From positions 1-54,283 of IMG/VR virus record IMGVR_UViG_3300044568_001017: a DNA stretch of 54,283 nucleotides, one strand, 5' to 3'. The notes below the pieces were generated by a model. It saw only the letters and a program-made list of their open reading frames with translations. It was not told the origin of the DNA and searched no databases. Positions 7,897 to 41,278 of this stretch are shown here, in pieces (position 1 is the first letter of the stretch; each line of letters opens with the position of its first letter). Source of the DNA: a virus (Duplodnaviria; Caudoviricetes). A program made the position numbers and the translations under genes.

Positions 7897-10725
7897 ATGG
7901 CACTTAAATTTAATCCATTTACTGGAAAGCTAGATTTTGCTGCAAGCCAAGAACCTGCTAGTCAAGCAACATATTATAAAAGTGGCAACCAGAATCTAAG
8001 TGATCCAAATACCGATATTACGTTTGACCAATTGGCAACTTGGAGTAATGGGAATAACTATATCTCGCACACACCGGGTTCTAAAGATTTCACTGTAGTA
8101 AAGAGTGGTCTATATCAATTGGAATGGAATGCTTCTATTGCAGCAAATGGAGCAACATGGAATACCGCAAATAACAAAGTAATTTCTATTGATATTACCC
8201 GTTTTCCTACCGCAGAACAAATTGTAATAGGTCAAAGTGCTATTCAAGCGAACGGTCAAACTTATACTCAGAGTGTAAATTCAACTTTTAATCTTGTTGC
8301 CGGAGATATAATTAATCTTCGTGTTCAATGCACTTGGGCAACTGCACAACCATTTGTTCAAGGAGTTCAAAACACAATTGATCTTAATACTTGGTTTACT
8401 TGGAGGTTTGTATCGTTTGATGGAAATGGAGCGGTTGGAGCAGACGGGGCAACGGGAGCGACTGGCCCCAGTGGTGGCCCAACAGGAGCGACAGGTGTAA
8501 GTGGAGCCACAGGTTCCACGGGATCAACTGGTTTGACAGGCCCACAAGGTACAACAGGCGCAACAGGATTGATTGGATCGACAGGAGCCATTGGTAGTGC
8601 TGGCTCAACAGGAGCCACGGGTGCTACGGGCGTTGCAGGAACCAACGGAACAGATGGAGCCACAGGATCGACTGGAGTCACTGGCGTTATTGGATTAACT
8701 GGAACAACTGGCGCAACTGGAACCTCTGGAACAAACGGGACTACAGGAGCCACGGGCGTTTCTGGGAGTGATGGCGCAACAGGCGCAACAGGAAATGTTG
8801 GTGGTCAAGGTAGCACTGGAGCTACTGGCCCGGCGGCAAACACATCTACATTCGTGCAGAAAACTGGCGACACGATGACTGGGAAGTTGAATCTTCCAGC
8901 TTCAACCTCGTCTTCAGTTCCATTAAATTTAGGCAATGGAGTTTCACCAACAACAACAGTTGCAGGAGATGTATTTTCATCTGGGAATAATATATTCTTT
9001 AAAGGCACAACAGGCGGCCCATATATTTTTGCTTACAAAAATGACACGAATACATTTCTTGTCCCTCAAATAATTAACACTGTATCTCCGACTGGAGACT
9101 CTGCCCCAGCACTTCGCATAACGCAAGCTGGAGGAGGGGAGGCGTTGCGCGTAGAAGACCAGACTACCCCTGATTCTACAGCTTTTGTTGTATCAACTTC
9201 TGGAAGAGTCGGCGTTGGAGTAACGCCTGATGCAACAGTTTCGCTTTCAATAGATACTACTGGAATTAAGTTCGGTGACGGCACTATTCAAACAACCGCT
9301 ACAATCGCTGGTGCAACTGGTGCAACGGGAGCAGGAACGACAGGAGCAACTGGTGCGACTGGAACTTCTGGTGGACAAGGTAGTACGGGAGCCACTGGTT
9401 TGTCTGGCAATGACGGAGCCACGGGAGCGACAGGATTGACGGGCGCAACGGGAATTTCTGGAATTGATGGAGCAACTGGTTCCACGGGAGCAACAGGGAT
9501 AGCTGGACTTGATGGATCGACTGGTGCTACTGGGGTTTCTGGAGCAGATGGAGCGACAGGTGCGACAGGAACACAAGGTGATGTCGGGGCAACTGGAGCC
9601 ACGGGTGCTACTGGAATTGCTGGAGATATTGGTTCTACAGGAGCTACTGGTGTTGCCGGGTTAGACGGAGCAACAGGCGCGACTGGCGTTGCTGGCGATG
9701 TCGGAGCGACTGGCGCGACAGGCGTTGCAGGCGGTCAAGGCTCTACGGGTGCAACGGGCGTTACTGGAAATGACGGGGCGACTGGCTCCACAGGAGCTAC
9801 GGGCGTTATTGGCGATACAGGATCGACAGGAGCAACGGGTGTTGCTGGAGCAGATGGAGCTACAGGATCGACAGGAGCCACTGGCGCGACTGGCGCGAGC
9901 GGTGCAGATGGAACAGGGACTGCATATTACGGACAAGTCTCCCGAATCACAAACGGCACAATATCAATCGCTACTGCTGGGACATATCAATCAACCGGAT
10001 TAACCGCTACGCTCGATTCTGAAAACTTTGGAGTGAGCCTTGGGACAACAGATAGCTTTGCTGTAAAGAATACATCTGGTTCCGCGCAACTTTTCAAAAT
10101 CTACGGATCGGCAGATATTGATGCAGGAAACAATAGGGTTCTTGGAATTAAATTGGCACTTAATGGAACTCCGATTGACAATACAGAGTGCAATGCGTCA
10201 ACTGGACAAGGAACTACTTTTGCAAAACTTGTTACAAATTGGATGATCGAATTGCAACCGAATGACGAGGTTGCCTTGTTCGTTACAAACAAAACTACCG
10301 CTGGAAATGTTACCTTGTTGCGCGGCAGGTTGGTTGCATCAACTGTTGGACGGCAAGGAGAAGAGGGTGCTACGGGAGTTGCTGGGGCTACGGGTGATGT
10401 AGGGGCTACCGGATTAACTGGCGCAACTGGAGTGCAAGGCAATGTTGGTTCTACAGGTGCAACAGGTATCCAAGGTGATACAGGCTCGACTGGAGCCACG
10501 GGTGTTGCTGGTGTGGATGGGGCTACAGGGGCTACTGGTGCTACAGGAGTAGGAACACAAGGTTCGACGGGAGCAACTGGTTCTACCCCAGCCAATATTG
10601 TTCTTTCAGACACCACCGCCGCGCAAGGAGGGACTCAACTGCTTAACATGGTTCAAATAACTCAAGGGGCATACAACGCAATTGGAACTCCAACCTCAAA
10701 TACGCTTTACATCATCGTCGGATGA
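7897..10725 (+). CDS. Collagen-like (G-X-T) fibre protein with globular C1q/BclA-like domains
   Basis: Long GAT/GST triplet runs separated by beta-rich domains. Confidence 0.8.
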
Positions 10726-12874: not shown

Positions 12875-14098
<1,224 letters not shown>

Positions 14099-24589: not shown

Positions 24590-27500
24590 ATGGCTTTCGA
24601 CATAGACGTTTTTCTAAAAGAAAGTGGAAGTGGCGTTGTTGAAAATGAGAGTCAGACAGAGAAACCTCAATCAGTTCAACCCAAAGAAACTGCATTTGAT
24701 ATTGATACATTCCTAAAAGAGAATGTTTCTAATGTTCCAGTAGTATCAGAGCAAATCCAACCGCAAGAACCATCTGGTATCCTAAGACAAGCAGCAGACA
24801 TCCCACTTAAAGTAGCTCAAGGTGGAATCAGTTCAGTAAAAAGTTTCACTGATTTATTCGGCGCAGACAATGCAATGTCTAAAGAGTTAGCTGGATACGA
24901 GAAGTGGGTTGGTAGCCTAGTATCTGCTGAGTCCAAGAAGGACGATGAAGAGATCGCTAGGATTCTAAAGGATGCAGAAAACAAGGGAGTCTACGATAAG
25001 GTTGTAGCTGGTCTTCAAGCATTCTCTAAAGCTCCACTAGAAATGACAGCGCAAAGTGCTGGGTACATGATACCGCAACTTGCCGCTGGTGTGCTAGGAA
25101 AAGCCGCGCAGTTTACTAAAGCTGGTATCATTGGAACACAAGCTGCCATTGGATTTGCTCAAGGAGCAGGGCAAGCTAAAGGAGACATCTACGAATCGAC
25201 ATTAGATTATCTACGCAAACAAGGTGTGTCAGAAAATGTAGCGAACGATAAAGCAATCGAAGCCCAAGCAACGCTAGGAAAGAACCTAGATCAGATTTTA
25301 TTGAGTGCTATAGGGAATGCTTTGACATCTTCAACTGGTGCTGAAGCTATCGCAACCCGTATACTTATCAAGCAAGGCAAGGAAGCAACTGGTGGTGCTA
25401 TCAAAGGATTTTTAAAGGGAGTTGCCGCAGAATCTCCTTTGGAAGCAATTCAAAGCGCACAACAAGAAGTTGCTAAGAATGTTGCTATACAAAGAGAAGG
25501 TGGCGATGTGCCTACGTTCAAGGGTGCTATCGAGAGTGCTACTACTGGCGCGGTAGCTGGTGCATTTATCGGTGGGCCACTGGGTGCATTTGAAGCAATG
25601 AGTGCAGAGCAGAAGGCAGAGATAGACATTACCAAAGAAGCCAATCGTAAGGCGCGTGACCTAGAAGCACCCGATACAGCAACGCAAGCTATAGCAGCAG
25701 CGATTACTAACCTTGAGCGAGGCATTGATAATAAAAGAAAAGACCTAGATGTTTTAGAATCAACCTCACCAGAGGCATCGAAACTACGCTTAGACATTGC
25801 CGCTGACCAAAAGATTTTAGCTCAATCCAAAGAGCAAGCTAACAAATTAGGATTATCGGAAACGATAACAGAAGCAGAGAAGCAACAGATTGAGTTAGCT
25901 AAACAGATAGCTGCACCCGAAGTTGTCGCAGTCGCAGAAGCTGTAACACCCGCACCAGTAGAACAAGTAGTCACGCCACCAGTAGAGGTTGCACCAACCA
26001 TCGCAGAAACCGCGCCAGTTGAGCCAGTAGTAAGCCAAGAATTTAAAGATGAACTTGAAATGTCTGGAGTTGCTTACGATGGAGATACAAGGTATTCCGT
26101 CCAGCAATCTTCTAATGGCACATTCAGAGCGGAAAGAATTGTAAACGGAAAGAAGGAAGATATTCAAATTGGATTGCCAGACATTGAAACGGCACAAAAT
26201 GTAATCTTTAATTCAGTTGGAAAAGAAGTTCCTGCAATAACAGCAGAAACTCCTGCCATAACAATGCCAGAAATTCAACAGCAAGTTCCAAGTGGGATGT
26301 CGGTTGAGGAAGCCAAGGCATATCTTGAAGAAAGAAATAAATCTACAATCCTTGGATACGCGCCAGAAGATATTATGGCTATGCAACAAGGAAAGCGTGT
26401 TGCCAGAACTATTCCTCCCGCACCAGTCATCGAGCAAGCTGCACCAGCAGAAGCTCCCGCGCCAGAGGTTGCGCCTACTTTATGGGTTGCTCCAGAGCAA
26501 AAACTTACTTTGCAAGAAAACAGAGCATTGCAGATAGCCAACCTAAAAGGGACGGAAAAACGGACTGGTAATATTACTTTTGTTCCAGAAAAAATGATGA
26601 CTCCGCAAAGGTTGCAATCATTAAGAACGGAACAAGAATCATCTGGAACATTGAAGCAATTTCCAAGAGGGGGAAAGTTTATTGAGATAAAAATGATGGC
26701 AGATGTGACTGGTGATCCAAATGCAAAGGGATGGGCTATCATTGATCGCAGAACTGATCTTAATAGGAGAGAATGGATTGCTCAAATACCAAATCGAGAT
26801 GAAAGAATTTTGGCTGGAAGTATTGCAAATAATGAATCACAAAAGATTGTTTCTGCAATAAAAGAAGGAAGTATTACACAAGAAAGATCAAATCAACTTG
26901 TTGATGAGGCAGTAAACAATCAAATAATTTCATCGGATTTTGCTAATAATTTAAAGACTGAAATCAGTAAGTCCACCCGCGCAGTATCGGAAACGATAAC
27001 GGAGCCAGCAGAAGAACAAGGAGGTATCTTAAAAGAAACTGCTAAATTTGCTGACGAAGCTTTGCGCGAGCGAGATAAAGAAGTCGCAAGATACAAAAAG
27101 AAAGCTGATGCAGAACGTAAGGCGGGGCGTGAAGAGATGGCGCAACGATATGAAGGAATGATAGACGATTTAATGTCTGTCCCTTCTGAAGATTTTAAAA
27201 AAGATGTAATTGAAAACCCTGAATATTACATTGAATCAAATATTGATCCATTTCTGCGATTCAAAAACAAAGAAGTAAATAGAGCCACCCCATTAACACC
27301 ATCTAAACGCAAAAAAGAATCGGGCGGCGTTCTAATCCCCACCAAAGAAGACTTCATCCAAGCAGGGCAGAACATCTACGAGGCTGGCATGGAGTTTGGT
27401 GCTTGGGCTAAACAGATGATCCAGAGATTCGGTGATGCGGTGAGAGAGTTCCTTGGTGATGTATGGCAAGCGGTGAGTGGTGCGCCAGCGAAGTTAAATG

Positions 27501-30500
27501 AACTGATGGGTTACTTGCCGGGTAAAGGTGAGGCTGGATCGGTGAACCTTGGCAGCGGGAAACCAGCAACTGAATCAAAAAATGCTTTAGAACTAATTCG
27601 CGGAAACTATGGTGAGTTGAGCGATATGATCAACAAGATCATAGATAGTAATCAAAAAATCGCTGATGCTCTACAAAAGATACCCGTTGAACTAACAAGC
27701 AGGAATTCCTTTGATGGAGAAACTGTAAGAATTAGCAAGAGCTTCTCTGGGCTTAAATTAGTTGACGCAATCAACCACGAAATCACTCACTCATTTCTAG
27801 CGGTAGCATTAAGGGAGATTCCTTCATTCCGTGAAGCGATTAACTCAATCCGTCTTGATGCAATTGAGAGAGCAAAGTATTCAAATGACATAAGTTTTAG
27901 GGGCGCAGTTAGTCTAATAAAAGAAGCGCAAGGCTTATCTAGAGGGCTAATCTATACTAAAAGGGACACAGAAAATTTAAGCCAATACATGATCAGAAAT
28001 ACCAATGGCTTAATGTATTTGTGGAATTTGGATAAAACAAATCCTCCATTTACATACGAGATTTTTGAAACTGCTTATGCATTAGCATCCAACGATGAAT
28101 TCTTGGCTCACCTTATGAGTGACAAAAGATTCCGTGATGAGCTAAAAACATACAAGGTATTCACGCCAGACAATAGGAATCTCTTCCAGAAGTTTATAGA
28201 CTCTATCAAGGGCTTATTCCAAAAATTAACAAAGGTTGAGAAGACTGTTCTTGATAAAGCAATGGAGCAAGTTGAGCGAGTTGTTCAACTACCAGAGTAT
28301 AACCCTCGCCCAATTGAGGGACTTGCAGAAATGCTAGCTAAATATGAACAAGGTGATGCCCCAATAGAACCAGAAGCAGAGACAATCACCGAAGCAATGG
28401 GTCAAGGTCTGGATATTGGCAAAGAAGATAATATGCCAATCAACAATAAGATTGAGAGTCATATTAAGAACTTCGCTGTTGTCCGTGGGTTCTTTGAGTC
28501 TGCTAGTGATAGGTTGCGTAGAGCAGGGTTTAAAAAACTAGCTACAGCTATTGATGATTACTATGACCAAGCTCAACGCCGACTTGGATTCGCTAACAAG
28601 ATTCTTCTCCCAGCTTTTGATGAGTACGCAAAACAATCTAAAGCAAACAAGAAAAAGATTGATGAAGAAGTTAAGATGTTCTATGCCGCGCAAGAAAACA
28701 AGCGTGATACGGCTGAGTTCTTTGATGAGTTGAACCCAATCACTCAGAAGATTGTAACTGCTTGGCAGAAGTTTGGTGAAGAATCTGGTAAAGATAACCA
28801 AAGAATCGGAATCAAAGTTTTTGATCGTGGACTACAAAGGTTTCGACCAATCGGACGAGTAGATAAATTCTTCCCTCGTATTCTCAAACCAAAGTACAAA
28901 CAGGCATTGATGGAGCCAGACAAATATCAGAAAGAATACAACGAGATTGTAGAAGCCTTAATGAAGTCTGGAAGAATCGAGAAACCAGAAGACGCAGAGC
29001 GTTACATCTCTAACTACGAAGGAACTGGCACTCAGAAAGACTACTTCTCAGGTATTGAATCTGCCCGTGGTCAAGCACTCCCAGAGGAATTGTATGACTA
29101 TTCCATGCAAGTGATGACGGACTACGTTGCACGATGGGCGCAACACGCTAGTCGAATCGAACAATTCGGACAGAAACTTGGTGAGAACTCGATGACACTT
29201 TGGAATAGATCAAGAGCATCAACTAGAGATCGCAGGACAATCGACTACATTACCGCTGCTCAAGAACGAGTAGAAGGATACTTCCCAAATGATCCTTTCG
29301 TGAAAGGGATGGCGGCATTGAACATCTGGGCATCGGGATTGCAGTTAGGAAACCCAGCATCAGCTACGATGAACCTTGTTGGTGGCACTACGCTGAATGC
29401 CATGATCGGACAACCCGGCGCGGCTTCTAGCTACGTTGAGTCCCTTGTGGAGCTACGCAAACTTGGTAGCAATCTAAAAGACGCTAGAGAAAAAGGAATC
29501 ATCTCGCGTGATCTGATGAATATCGTAGGAGATCACCAAGAAGTTCTCGATCAAAATGGGATCGCTAAAGCTGGACAGAAGACTGCTGACTTCTTATTGA
29601 AGTGGTCAGGTTTCACTCCAGTAGAGCAGATGGTCAGAACACAAAGTCTGATTATCGGAAAATCATTCTTGAGAAAGACACTATCTAGCTACTCTCAAAA
29701 TCCAGATAGTTTATTCTCTAAACAAGCTAGTACATGGTTAAGCCGAAACAATTTTGATATTGATAAGCTGCTCGTTGAGCAAGGAAGCGGCCCAGAGACA
29801 GACAAGTTGATGCGCTACTTCGCTACTGCTTCCCAAGGTGGTTACACAATTTCACAGACTCCTATCTTCATTGATACACCGATTGGTAAATTCCTTTTCA
29901 AGTATCAGAAGTTCTCTACCCAAGTCATGCGTCAAGCATGGAAGAATACGTTTGAGCCAGCGTGGAAGGCCGTCACGTTTAAAGGTGAGACGATGCAACT
30001 GCCATCTGAAACAAGGCAGTTGCTCTATAGACTGAGACTAGCAGAGGCTAGGGAGATCGGAGACAACCGAAAGATTTCATTGGATGAGATACCACAGAAG
30101 GTATCTAAAGCAGAAGCAAAGGCATTAACTCTCATCCCTGTGATGATGTGGCTTGCCTCTGCGTATGTAGGTGGTGAAGCTATCCTGCGTTTGAGGGATG
30201 TTTTGTTTGGCGTAATGATGAAGGGGCCAGACTACGAAGACATCTTGAAAGCGTTAGAAGATGATGAAGACGATGATGAACTTTATCTAGGACTTCAACG
30301 CGCATGGTACAATCTGATTGGTATCGGTGCGCTAGGATTGATCGGCAACTACGGGCAGTTCTTCATGGACTGGCAGGATCGTGAGCGCGTCAAGAATCCG
30401 CTAGACCCACCAGCACTTAGCCTAGTCAAAGAAACTGCTACTCTGATTCAGAACGTAGCAGACCAAGGCACAATCACTAAAGGAGACATCAACAATTATG

Positions 30501-31024
30501 TGAATCGGATGTCATCCATGTATAGAGTGAGTCAGAAACTATACCAAACAGCAGCTAGTGGATTGGGCTTCTCAGACGCACCAACAGTAGCTGAAGAGAT
30601 ATACAGGAGAGAAGTTGCTGACATCAATAAGTATGGTCGTCGCTGGGCTGAGTCCGCTGGACTTGAGTACAGAACCAAGCGTCCAATGGATATTGCCCCA
30701 AGCAAAATGACTCCTATCAACAGGAAGATTTCTAGTTACCTACAAAGGAATGATCCAGTCGGCGCGTCTGCTTATGCTAAAGAATATCTCAAGACACTAC
30801 CCAAAGATGCTCGCAAGAATGCAATCCAGAGCATGGAGTCTGGAGCTAGGAATCGTCAGCCTCTGCGGTTAGGTGACGGGCCAATGGATGAAGCAGAGAA
30901 GAGAGCATTCTTGAAGTGGGCCAAAACAAAAATGAGTCCAGAGAAGTACGCTAGTATTGAGAAACTGACTAAGCAGTATGAATCGAATCGTAAAAAGTTT
31001 CTGATGCGATTGCCGAATAGATAG
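24590..31024 (+). CDS. Large internal virion / ejection (polyvalent) protein with HExxH motif
   Basis: 2144 aa, last gene of the structural operon; N-terminal FDID repeats; INHEITHS followed later by DEFLA (zincin-like). Confidence 0.65.
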   Translation: MAFDIDVFLKESGSGVVENESQTEKPQSVQPKETAFDIDTFLKENVSNVPVVSEQIQPQEPSGILRQAADIPLKVAQGGISSVKSFTDLFGADNAMSKELAGYEKWVGSLVSAESKKDDEEIARILKDAENKGVYDKVVAGLQAFSKAPLEMTAQSAGYMIPQLAAGVLGKAAQFTKAGIIGTQAAIGFAQGAGQAKGDIYESTLDYLRKQGVSENVANDKAIEAQATLGKNLDQILLSAIGNALTSSTGAEAIATRILIKQGKEATGGAIKGFLKGVAAESPLEAIQSAQQEVAKNVAIQREGGDVPTFKGAIESATTGAVAGAFIGGPLGAFEAMSAEQKAEIDITKEANRKARDLEAPDTATQAIAAAITNLERGIDNKRKDLDVLESTSPEASKLRLDIAADQKILAQSKEQANKLGLSETITEAEKQQIELAKQIAAPEVVAVAEAVTPAPVEQVVTPPVEVAPTIAETAPVEPVVSQEFKDELEMSGVAYDGDTRYSVQQSSNGTFRAERIVNGKKEDIQIGLPDIETAQNVIFNSVGKEVPAITAETPAITMPEIQQQVPSGMSVEEAKAYLEERNKSTILGYAPEDIMAMQQGKRVARTIPPAPVIEQAAPAEAPAPEVAPTLWVAPEQKLTLQENRALQIANLKGTEKRTGNITFVPEKMMTPQRLQSLRTEQESSGTLKQFPRGGKFIEIKMMADVTGDPNAKGWAIIDRRTDLNRREWIAQIPNRDERILAGSIANNESQKIVSAIKEGSITQERSNQLVDEAVNNQIISSDFANNLKTEISKSTRAVSETITEPAEEQGGILKETAKFADEALRERDKEVARYKKKADAERKAGREEMAQRYEGMIDDLMSVPSEDFKKDVIENPEYYIESNIDPFLRFKNKEVNRATPLTPSKRKKESGGVLIPTKEDFIQAGQNIYEAGMEFGAWAKQMIQRFGDAVREFLGDVWQAVSGAPAKLNELMGYLPGKGEAGSVNLGSGKPATESKNALELIRGNYGELSDMINKIIDSNQKIADALQKIPVELTSRNSFDGETVRISKSFSGLKLVDAINHEITHSFLAVALREIPSFREAINSIRLDAIERAKYSNDISFRGAVSLIKEAQGLSRGLIYTKRDTENLSQYMIRNTNGLMYLWNLDKTNPPFTYEIFETAYALASNDEFLAHLMSDKRFRDELKTYKVFTPDNRNLFQKFIDSIKGLFQKLTKVEKTVLDKAMEQVERVVQLPEYNPRPIEGLAEMLAKYEQGDAPIEPEAETITEAMGQGLDIGKEDNMPINNKIESHIKNFAVVRGFFESASDRLRRAGFKKLATAIDDYYDQAQRRLGFANKILLPAFDEYAKQSKANKKKIDEEVKMFYAAQENKRDTAEFFDELNPITQKIVTAWQKFGEESGKDNQRIGIKVFDRGLQRFRPIGRVDKFFPRILKPKYKQALMEPDKYQKEYNEIVEALMKSGRIEKPEDAERYISNYEGTGTQKDYFSGIESARGQALPEELYDYSMQVMTDYVARWAQHASRIEQFGQKLGENSMTLWNRSRASTRDRRTIDYITAAQERVEGYFPNDPFVKGMAALNIWASGLQLGNPASATMNLVGGTTLNAMIGQPGAASSYVESLVELRKLGSNLKDAREKGIISRDLMNIVGDHQEVLDQNGIAKAGQKTADFLLKWSGFTPVEQMVRTQSLIIGKSFLRKTLSSYSQNPDSLFSKQASTWLSRNNFDIDKLLVEQGSGPETDKLMRYFATASQGGYTISQTPIFIDTPIGKFLFKYQKFSTQVMRQAWKNTFEPAWKAVTFKGETMQLPSETRQLLYRLRLAEAREIGDNRKISLDEIPQKVSKAEAKALTLIPVMMWLASAYVGGEAILRLRDVLFGVMMKGPDYEDILKALEDDEDDDELYLGLQRAWYNLIGIGALGLIGNYGQFFMDWQDRERVKNPLDPPALSLVKETATLIQNVADQGTITKGDINNYVNRMSSMYRVSQKLYQTAASGLGFSDAPTVAEEIYRREVADINKYGRRWAESAGLEYRTKRPMDIAPSKMTPINRKISSYLQRNDPVGASAYAKEYLKTLPKDARKNAIQSMESGARNRQPLRLGDGPMDEAEKRAFLKWAKTKMSPEKYASIEKLTKQYESNRKKFLMRLPNR

Positions 31025-37914: not shown

Positions 37915-38490
37915 ATGAACAAAACGCCAGAATTGAATAGCGAAACGCTAGGCCGTGGAAGTCGGAAAAAGTGGGACATGGAGAAGATAGAAACGCTATT
38001 CATGGGCGGGGCGGAGATGAGTGACATTCTGAAACTCCCTGAGTTTTCGTTGATGAGTAAGTTTTATCTCAAAAACTGCATGGTGAAGGGAAAGTGGATC
38101 GACAAGCGGAAAAGGTTGCGGGAAGAAGTGGCAAACGTGGTGGCTCCGAAGCTGGAGGACGCAATGGCATCTGAAACTATTGCTCATTATGCGTTTATGC
38201 TGAGAGAGATTGCGGCGGAGAGGGTGCAGATTGAAACGAGACACAAGAGCGGGAACATTAAAGATCAGGCGCAAAGGCTGGACGTGTTGGCGGAATATGA
38301 GAAAATTGCCACAAGAGCGTTGGGATTGGATGAAAATAATATGCACGATAAGAAAGGTTTATCTGTGAACGCGATGATTTCTCTGCACGTTAGCGGGCCG
38401 ACGAAAGCGGATAAGGTTGAAATTGTATCCACGCAATATGTCGATGCAGCGGAGGGCTTGGAAAAAGACGATAAATTGGATACAGAGTGA
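37915..38490 (+). CDS. Putative terminase small subunit
   Basis: N-terminal 'WDMEKIETLFMGG' HTH-like region, helical core, 'RALGLDE'. Confidence 0.45.
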   Translation: MNKTPELNSETLGRGSRKKWDMEKIETLFMGGAEMSDILKLPEFSLMSKFYLKNCMVKGKWIDKRKRLREEVANVVAPKLEDAMASETIAHYAFMLREIAAERVQIETRHKSGNIKDQAQRLDVLAEYEKIATRALGLDENNMHDKKGLSVNAMISLHVSGPTKADKVEIVSTQYVDAAEGLEKDDKLDTE

Positions 38491-39651: not shown

Positions 39652-40017
39652 TTAGAATGAGGAAACGATGATACCGCCGTCAAATTCGATGAGTGTCCCG
39701 TGATCGTTTATGTATTCTCTGATTTTCGCGTCAATTTCGTCGGAATCTTCTAAGTCATCAAATTCAATATCAGCAAACTCTAGAGCGAATAAGAGGGATT
39801 TCGCGCCGAAATGCTCTATAATCCAATCCTGTAGGCTGGTAGTTTCTGAGAAATCGCATCGAATCGCGCAAGTGTCCAATTCCATTTCATCGCCTGTGCT
39901 ATCTTCATATTCCTCGAGATATTCCGCAAGGGCAAGCGATCCATTGTAAGACCAGCGGGCGCAAGTGTCGCGTTTCAGTTCATCAGCTATTTGGTAGGTA
40001 TTAAGTGTTATTTTCAT
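39652..40017 (-). CDS. Highly acidic early protein (possible DNA mimic)
   Basis: 121 aa, D/E-rich (LAEYLEEYED...ELD..AIRCDFSE). Confidence 0.6.
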   Translation of the reverse strand: MKITLNTYQIADELKRDTCARWSYNGSLALAEYLEEYEDSTGDEMELDTCAIRCDFSETTSLQDWIIEHFGAKSLLFALEFADIEFDDLEDSDEIDAKIREYINDHGTLIEFDGGIIVSSF

Positions 40018-40043
40018 TATGTATTTTCTAGTTTGGTTGTGGC

Positions 40044-40099
40044 AATCTCATCAGTCCACACTTGCCAAGTGTGAAGACGGGAAGAATCCCGTTTCGATT
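40044..40099 (-). ncRNA. Type II hammerhead ribozyme
   Basis: Minus strand: AATC-GAAA-CGGGA ttct TCCCG-UC-TTCACACTT ggc AAGTGTGGA-CUGAUGA-GATT. All core nucleotides and three stems are present. Confidence 0.9.
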
Positions 40100-40102
40100 T
40101 TC

Positions 40103-40366
40103 TCAAGCTTCAGCGTAAGCGGATTCGATGCGTTCGCCGCTGTGGTCACAATATAGCTCACCATCTTCCCAGTTGGTATCACAAGCGACAACCCGCCAGC
40201 CGTCATTTACTTTGTGACGCACAGACCAAAGGACAGCGCGGAAGTTTGAACGGACACTATCAAAGGACAGCGCGGCCCCATCGGACGTGATAAAGTAAAG
40301 AGGGTAAGCACCGGGCCAAGAATAAGCCCCGGAACGAAGGATAGTTTTGAGTTGTTTGGTTGTCAT
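40103..40366 (-). CDS. Conserved-looking phage early protein
   Basis: YSWPGAYPLYF...NWED..LYCDHSGERIESAY. Confidence 0.7.
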   Translation of the reverse strand: MTTKQLKTILRSGAYSWPGAYPLYFITSDGAALSFDSVRSNFRAVLWSVRHKVNDGWRVVACDTNWEDGELYCDHSGERIESAYAEA

Positions 40367-40646: not shown

Positions 40647-40805
40647 TCTATTATTCTAATGTGAGACGCTCGAAAGCGTCCGTGGTTTGTATTCATTCGA
40701 GCCTATCAAAGACAGACACGAAATTTATTTCTATTCAAAGATCAAGATTGTGGATTCACTCGCCAACCCTGCATTCAAAAGGTTCTAGCGACTGCCACGC
40801 CCTTA

Positions 40806-40833
40806 ATTATACAGAGCATTCACACTATGTCAA
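40806..40833 (-). promoter_or_regulatory. Strong early promoter
   Basis: Perfect TTGACA-N16-TATAAT on the minus strand, upstream of the early gene cluster. Confidence 0.8.
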
Positions 40834-41278
40834 TAGATTATTTTTATCTATTTTCATGCTGTCACAAGCAGGAACCATGCCAGCTTGTAAATAGAAAAGT
40901 ATTAGCACATATCATGCCAATGATAAAACATGGGAAGCCATTGAACATATTTACGCATTCAAATATCATGATATGAGACATTCCATCGTTATATCGCTAT
41001 ACACCGATATATCAATATTAGAGCGAAAACATGCCATGGCACTAATCAGCTTCACTAATTCAAAGGTCACCACGGCCTACCTCGCGCAATGATTTCCGGC
41101 TTGTCTCGCTATATATAGCAAAGTAGCCTTTTTCACAACATGAGCTAAAATCACGCCAACTCGTCACAACATAGCAAAGCCCGATTTCGCTGATTATCCC
41201 GCCCCATTCTCTCATGCTGTCCATTGCCAATCACTCGCCCCATTCGATGGCACTAATCACGCGACACTATCGGCAACG

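Follow-up and report, generated by a model that had tools for sequence, protein, structure and literature searches.

A predicted type II hammerhead ribozyme in an uncultured tailed phage, located between two small genes

On the minus strand of an uncultured tailed-phage genome, we found an element (positions 40099–40040) whose core, topology, pseudoknot and covariation in relatives identify it, as far as sequence can, as a type II hammerhead. A functional hammerhead that cuts itself within a multi-gene phage transcript is, in our judgement, probably the best explanation of this element. It appears to be a genuine member of an already known class, and it leaves the knowledge of that class unchanged; its value is that of a clean example, backed by evolutionary evidence, of a hammerhead between cistrons in an uncultured phage whose 54-kb genome is complete. 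The reason for self-cutting RNAs between small early phage genes has been a question since 2011.

The window, meaning the whole stretch of DNA that we analysed, is the entire virus record IMGVR_UViG_3300044568_001017 (54,283 bases), which CheckV rates 100% complete and whose ends are classed as linear. Tail-fibre and tail-spike genes occupy the plus strand (approximately 144–35159), and the minus-strand arm carries genes for a DnaB-like helicase, two glycosyltransferases, a dCMP deaminase, a run of small ORFs and an SNF2-type helicase. The hammerhead lies within this run of small ORFs, between an 87-aa and a 121-aa ORF, and is on the same strand as both.

Anatomy and scoring of the element

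When the minus strand is read 5' to 3', the order of parts is GAAA, hairpin, GUC, hairpin, CUGAUGA (Table 1); loops close stems I and III, and stem II is open, which is the type II arrangement. The full hammerhead core is present (C3-U4-G5-A6-N7-G8-A9, G12-A13-A14, the A15.1-U16.1 pair and an H17 that is not G; 40054–40048, 40095–40092 and 40077–40076), and a structural descriptor gives 9, 4 and 6 bp for stems I, II and III. The upstream stop codon is 7 nt from GAAA and 3 nt from stem II, 30 nt separate CUGAUGA from the next ATG, and the predicted cut would leave a leader of 58 nt. A sequence-only reading of the window had described a CUGAUGA, GAAA and GUC core on the minus strand between two genes, with a 9-bp stem I, a 6-bp stem III and a predicted cut 3' of C40076, about 58 nt ahead of the ATG at 40017. 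Our reading of the minus strand bears out this core and both stems, the position of the cut agrees with the anatomy, and every number in the earlier description is correct.

Table 1. Positions of the element, its neighbours and related features. Positions refer to the window unless a locus is named.
Feature	Position	Strand	Remarks
Promoter-like TTGACA-16-TATAAT, 12 of 12 positions	40806–40833	minus	sole perfect sigma-70 consensus in the window; about 700 nt upstream of the hammerhead
Upstream ORF, 87 aa, phrog_18452 match	40103–40366	minus	stop codon TGA at 40105–40103 in the minus-strand reading
Stem II, 5'-proximal strand AAUC	40096–40099	minus	only U40097 and C40096 paired in all relatives
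Core G12, A13, A14	40093–40095	minus	
Stem III hairpin ACGGGA/UCCCGU, loop UUCU	40077–40092	minus	6 bp including A15.1-U16.1
C17 of the GUC triplet	40076	minus	scissile bond 40076/40075 predicted from the hammerhead consensus
Stem I hairpin	40055–40075	minus	7 bp with a 7-nt loop if the pseudoknot forms, otherwise up to 9 bp with a 3-nt loop
Core CUGAUGA (C3 to A9)	40048–40054	minus	
Stem II, 3' strand GAUU	40044–40047	minus	G40047 and A40046, optionally U40045 and U40044
Pseudoknot tail UUGCCA	40040–40045	minus	partner is loop I, 40067–40062
A/C-rich leader	40018–40039	minus	no obvious Shine-Dalgarno sequence; kept in relatives, including one without a ribozyme
Downstream ORF, 121 aa, phrog_9974 match	39652–40017	minus	ATG at 40017
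Long hairpin in the hammerhead's slot	2405–2503 in each of L012, L017, L018, L021, L025 and L031; 1964–2062 in L037		

The anatomy in that earlier description was correct and also incomplete, because it overlooked a pseudoknot of 6 bp between loop I and the 3' tail. All six pairs that the two segments can form are Watson-Crick, and the element thereby reaches 40040; only 138 of 20,000 shuffles of the tail, and 162 of 20,000 random 16-mers of the window, do as well. This pseudoknot is the tertiary contact that marks natural type II hammerheads; Perreault et al. (2011; PMC3088659) report that type II hammerheads with such a pseudoknot cleave in vitro, with cleavage and its speed dependent on the pseudoknot. 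An open stem II of 4 bp had also been proposed for the window: four pairs can indeed form, but only two of them are conserved in relatives. The outer two pairs compete with two pairs of the pseudoknot and are not kept in relatives, and the conserved architecture is a 2-bp stem II with a 4–5-bp pseudoknot, the same as in the Rfam consensus.

To the extent that the 2011 account describes it, the type II class has in common with the window element the core, the permutation, the very short stem II, a pseudoknot of at least 4 bp directly after stem II and a phage intergenic site (Perreault et al., 2011). The window element differs from the class in its Rfam score (below), in a short stem III with a 4-nt loop and in a stem II that can be extended to 4 bp at the cost of two pseudoknot pairs.

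An Rfam comparison had been proposed as a check, and its outcome is mixed. When 181 bases around the element were searched, the Rfam model RF02276 (Hammerhead_II) aligned end to end (model positions 1–66 of 66) with 33.6 bits and an E-value of 1.5e-5, which is 3.4 bits short of the curated gathering cut-off of 37 bits, an operational threshold and not a structural feature. Rfam searches of the whole window, at the gathering threshold and at E ≤ 1, gave no row, and neither did an RF02276 search of the window's own record; we read the missing whole-window match as an effect of speed filters. We also ran RF02276 on sites defined by a sequence pattern (GAAACGGG, a gap, CCCGUC, a gap, CUGANGA) that matches in at least 116 viral contigs. 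Among 22 pattern-defined sites in 20 of these loci, 12 pass the cut-off, one scores below it and nine give no row, and the nine include the site in L123, a close syntenic relative of the window's element. A sub-threshold score is therefore not disqualifying, since 10 of the 22 sites are likewise below the cut-off or unlisted. This case again shows that the Hammerhead_II cut-off and the speed filters of Rfam miss real members. Rfam also finds type II hammerheads beyond the pattern-defined ones, in L071, L095, L124 and L067, where they form clusters of two to four per locus.

A chance match, or a dead relic that has no present function, is an extremely improbable explanation. The score under the Rfam cut-off is compatible with it, as is the lack of the element in several close relatives (see below). 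However, the structural descriptor (core, stem I of at least 5 bp, stem II of at least 2 bp and stem III of at least 4 bp) finds exactly one site in the window (40099–40044, minus strand) and finds any match in only 1 of 1000 dinucleotide-preserving shuffles; stems and pseudoknot as good as those of the real site occur in 0 of 1000. Contigs in which the flanking proteins share only 62–89% identity also retain the element, with compensatory changes. With filters switched off, a custom covariance model detected a single hammerhead in the window; the match ranked after it, at 17.1 bits, has neither hairpin.

Conservation, covariation and gene neighbours

With the 121-aa protein as query, we obtained 42 viral loci. 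In five of them (L002, L007, L003, L004 and L008, which amount to four distinct sequences, L002 and L007 being identical there) a hammerhead lies directly upstream of the homologous gene, and in the other 37 it is absent from this position. Among the 11 loci whose downstream protein is 49–89% identical to that of the window, six have no hammerhead (L001, L005, L006, L009, L010 and L011); thus the hammerhead is not needed for expression of the downstream gene. The pattern scan added two further carriers, L123 and L145, and in L123 all three parts are arranged as in the window, the flanking proteins being 76% and 70% identical.

We aligned 13 rows: the window, the four sequences found via the protein and eight that were hand-picked for likeness to the window from 120 listed pattern matches. 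In this alignment 92.1% of cells pair, as compared to 77.8% in shuffles (0 of 500 reach 92.1%) and 35–39% in slid controls. All seven pairs of stem I change on both sides and 98.9% of its cells pair across the 13 rows, eight of them hand-picked. In stem III, most of which is fixed by the search pattern in the eight hand-picked rows, one of six pairs covaries (the closing pair changes from A-U to G-C or U-G) and the others are invariant. The core is invariant in all rows save at position 7, which differs in L004 and L145. When only the five rows found independently of the RNA are considered, stem I still shows exchanges of C-G for U-A and of A-U for G-C. The four central pseudoknot pairs are present in 12–13 of the 13 rows with hardly any variation, and the two stem II pairs do not covary (one is invariant and the other deviates by an unpaired cell only); because both hardly vary, covariation is silent on stem II and on these four pairs. 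We conclude from the pattern of substitutions that the hammerhead fold is maintained by selection.

The same alignment bears on a non-catalytic structure, in which the core would be decayed or present by accident and the role of the hairpins would be that of a terminator, of a stabiliser or of a site for a protein or an RNase. Two observations would suit such a structure: a terminator-like signal, formed by the complement of stem III, is flagged on the plus strand (40075–40094), and the fold energy of an 81-nt segment is unexceptional (z = −1.15). However, the unpaired core is invariant while the stems vary, which is unexpected for plain hairpins. The sequence after stem III on the coding strand is CUUCAC; we reject the terminator reading because this strand has no U tract, and no plus-strand gene ends near the site. 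Taken together, these observations make a non-catalytic structure very improbable.

The self-cleaving hammerhead that we favour is found next to changing genes. Near-identical ribozymes lie behind three unrelated upstream genes (one in the window and L002, one in L003 and one in L004) and ahead of two unrelated downstream genes (in the window and in L145). The upstream ORFs of L003 and L004 encode 101 and 135 aa, the latter matching phrog_29605, and in L145 the gene ahead of the ribozyme is a copy of the 87-aa gene with 64% identity, and the gene after it is unrelated. Whatever the upstream gene, the conserved block starts at AAAAUC right after the stop codon, and homology stops exactly at the element's edges. 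L001 has the 121-aa gene, at 88% identity, and no ribozyme; there, similarity restarts in the A/C-rich leader, just past where the tail would end. The varying neighbours and the absence from L001 indicate that the ribozyme is accessory and not bound to one neighbour.

It is conceivable, though we think it unlikely, that the ribozyme and the A/C-rich leader form a portable gene-boundary module, a natural insulator whose conserved 60-nt block may serve as a crossover point. If so, a small gene on either side would get its own protected message, since the type II permutation caps both products with a hairpin (stem III at the new 3' end and stem I at the new 5' end), and the 60-nt block could serve gene swapping between related phages. 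The unrelated neighbours on either side and the sharp loss of homology at the borders would fit such a module.

Look-alikes of the hammerhead in other viral contigs occupy similar positions. Among 117 distinct sites listed, 79 have a frame of at least 60 codons that stops 1–9 nt before GAAA, as compared to 139 of 2340 random positions, and 102 have a start that opens at least 60 codons within 200 nt, at a median of 28.5 nt after the core. A cruder test, based on the longest open frame, reveals only a moderate preference for the ribozyme's strand: 68 same-strand against 39 opposite-strand frames upstream (of 110 listed sites) and 65 against 40 downstream (of 109 listed). Hammerhead look-alikes thus typically seem, from their sequence context, to fill the spacer between two co-directional genes, as in the window.

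With only 3 nt between the stop codon and stem II, a ribosome terminating there would sit over stem II, GAAA and half of stem III, which raises the idea of a translation-gated ribozyme, one in which cutting would be timed or controlled by translation of the upstream gene instead of being constitutive. The 7-nt distance from stop codon to GAAA in the window and the stops at 1–9 nt in 79 of the 117 listed look-alikes both fit this idea. However, tight packing of phage genes would explain the same spacing with no need for regulation, and L003 and L004 retain the ribozyme behind unrelated genes. We also considered a masking conformer, in which the end of the upstream coding sequence pairs with core and tail in the uncut fold, and rejected it: the predicted pairing is matched by 26% of control windows, and the duplex is not kept in six relatives (control fractions 0.15–0.79). 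Translation gating is accordingly improbable in our estimation.

Transcription, predicted cleavage and known systems

The promoter-like site upstream of the hammerhead lies in a stretch of about 400 nt without long ORFs (40647–41060, minus strand). A perfect consensus of this kind has a chance expectation of 0.07, and at least one occurs in 7 of 100 shuffles. The site is kept exactly in L003 and L008 and is not kept in L002 or L004. Although a consensus match is no proof of a promoter, this site (40833–40806) is likely to be the start of the transcription unit that contains the ribozyme, and transcription through the hammerhead site is plausible from the sequence. A second promoter-like site at 40045–40016 (minus strand, 10 of 12 positions) was rejected; its start would fall inside the downstream ORF, and such sites are equally frequent in shuffles.

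Once a polymerase has passed approximately 40099–40040, the RNA would fold into the three stems and the loop I–tail pseudoknot and would cut itself between C40076 and U40075, with the assistance of Mg2+ that the chemistry of the family leads us to expect. The upstream product would carry the 87-aa gene and would have the stem III hairpin and a 2',3'-cyclic phosphate at its 3' end. The downstream product would carry the 121-aa gene and later genes; its 5'-hydroxyl would sit directly on the stem I hairpin, and the unstructured A/C-rich leader would come next. Predicted folds are consistent with this outcome: the upstream product has the stem III hairpin at its 3' end, and in the downstream product stem I starts at nucleotide 1, the rest being open up to and including the start codon. 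The two halves should separate, because only the 2–4 bp of stem II would join them.

In bacteria, a 5'-hydroxyl and 5'-terminal hairpins impede the 5'-end-dependent entry of RNase E or RNase J, and hairpins impede 3' exonucleases. By analogy with bacterial RNA decay, the cut would uncouple the fates of the two messages and shield both new ends. The downstream message would gain a defined, hairpin-capped 5' end, and its stability and translation would presumably become independent of the sequence upstream.

A/C-rich repeats without a Shine-Dalgarno sequence (runs of CCAA, CAAA or CA) are often found in the leaders that follow these hammerheads, as in the window (40018–40039, minus strand), L059 and L088. 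In L001 a run of CCAA occupies the ribozyme's place (L001:1310–1353).

The sequence-only reading had likened the element to the RNase III sites of the T7 early transcript. In each case an early polycistronic phage RNA is cut between its genes, with hairpins left at the product ends. RNase III sites in T7 require a host protein enzyme and leave 5'-phosphate and 3'-hydroxyl ends, whereas hammerhead cleavage needs no protein and leaves 5'-hydroxyl and 2',3'-cyclic phosphate ends; thus the analogy is apt for the outcome and not for the mechanism. RiboJ is an engineered insulator derived from a satellite-RNA hammerhead of another permutation. In RiboJ-type insulators, as predicted for the window element, the hammerhead cut strips away upstream context, and the new 5' end carries a hairpin; in contrast to RiboJ, the window element is natural and of type II. 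The locus suits a reporter test of insulation and stability because relatives with and without the ribozyme exist ahead of the same gene and the same ribozyme occurs beside different genes.

Protein-free processing of the polycistron would fit the anatomy and is the standard hypothesis for such elements. Type II hammerheads with a pseudoknot between loop I and the 3' tail in a phage intergenic context were described in 2011, together with the proposal that processing turns long phage transcripts into mRNAs of single-gene or operon length (Perreault et al., 2011; PMC3088659), and a 2019 review states that their purpose is still undefined (PMC6765202). What these two sources say on the subject agrees with the earlier remark that phage intergenic hammerheads are known while their role is poorly defined. 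The clustered prophage hammerheads that flank single genes (Perreault et al., 2011, Figure 3) resemble the window element in being intercistronic and co-directional with varied small phage genes, whereas the window carries a single copy.

The downstream gene and the phage genome

The 121-aa protein encoded downstream is very acidic (pI 4.05; 30 D+E and 8 K+R). It belongs to a large environmental family with 1122 clusters at E ≤ 0.001, all of them unnamed or annotated as hypothetical, and we found no Pfam family for it. Its AlphaFold model is confident (pLDDT 93.1). A fold search of the PDB with this model gave no match at E ≤ 0.001; the top match was ArdA, an anti-restriction DNA mimic (E 0.36, TM 0.37), and no match with an E-value under 0.46 came from a profile search of PDB sequences. 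Because no PDB fold or sequence match is significant, an anti-restriction role, as suggested by the modelled fold, is only a lead. In the 2011 study, ardA is placed just downstream of hammerheads in Legionella (PMC3088659).

Distant homologues of the 121-aa protein (31–37% identical) have no hammerhead; a conserved long hairpin of about 55 nt is found in the same 5' slot (Table 1). It has 21 predicted pairs, six of which change on both sides, and a conserved apical loop; a search of Rfam gave no family for it at a meaningful score.

We found no close cultured relative of the phage and, among deposited phages, no DNA match to the region or to the hammerhead itself. The replicative helicase is only 24–30% identical to its best matches, and the relatives among deposited phages are limited to the 121-aa protein, which has counterparts of 33–36% identity in Microcystis phages. 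A tRNA search of the genome found none. Cumulative GC skew peaks in the 40–42 kb bins.

Several other features of the genome were observed. Two long ORFs overlap on opposite strands at 37915–38490 (plus) and 37996–38346 (minus). The 116-aa minus-strand ORF has counterparts that are 74–80% identical in five relatives, the 191-aa plus-strand ORF has no PHROG match, and the minus-strand ORF is probably the real gene. On the plus strand, two collagen-like tail-fibre genes (7897–10725 and 12875–14098) have repeated domains in common, and an ORF of 2144 aa lies at 24590–31024.
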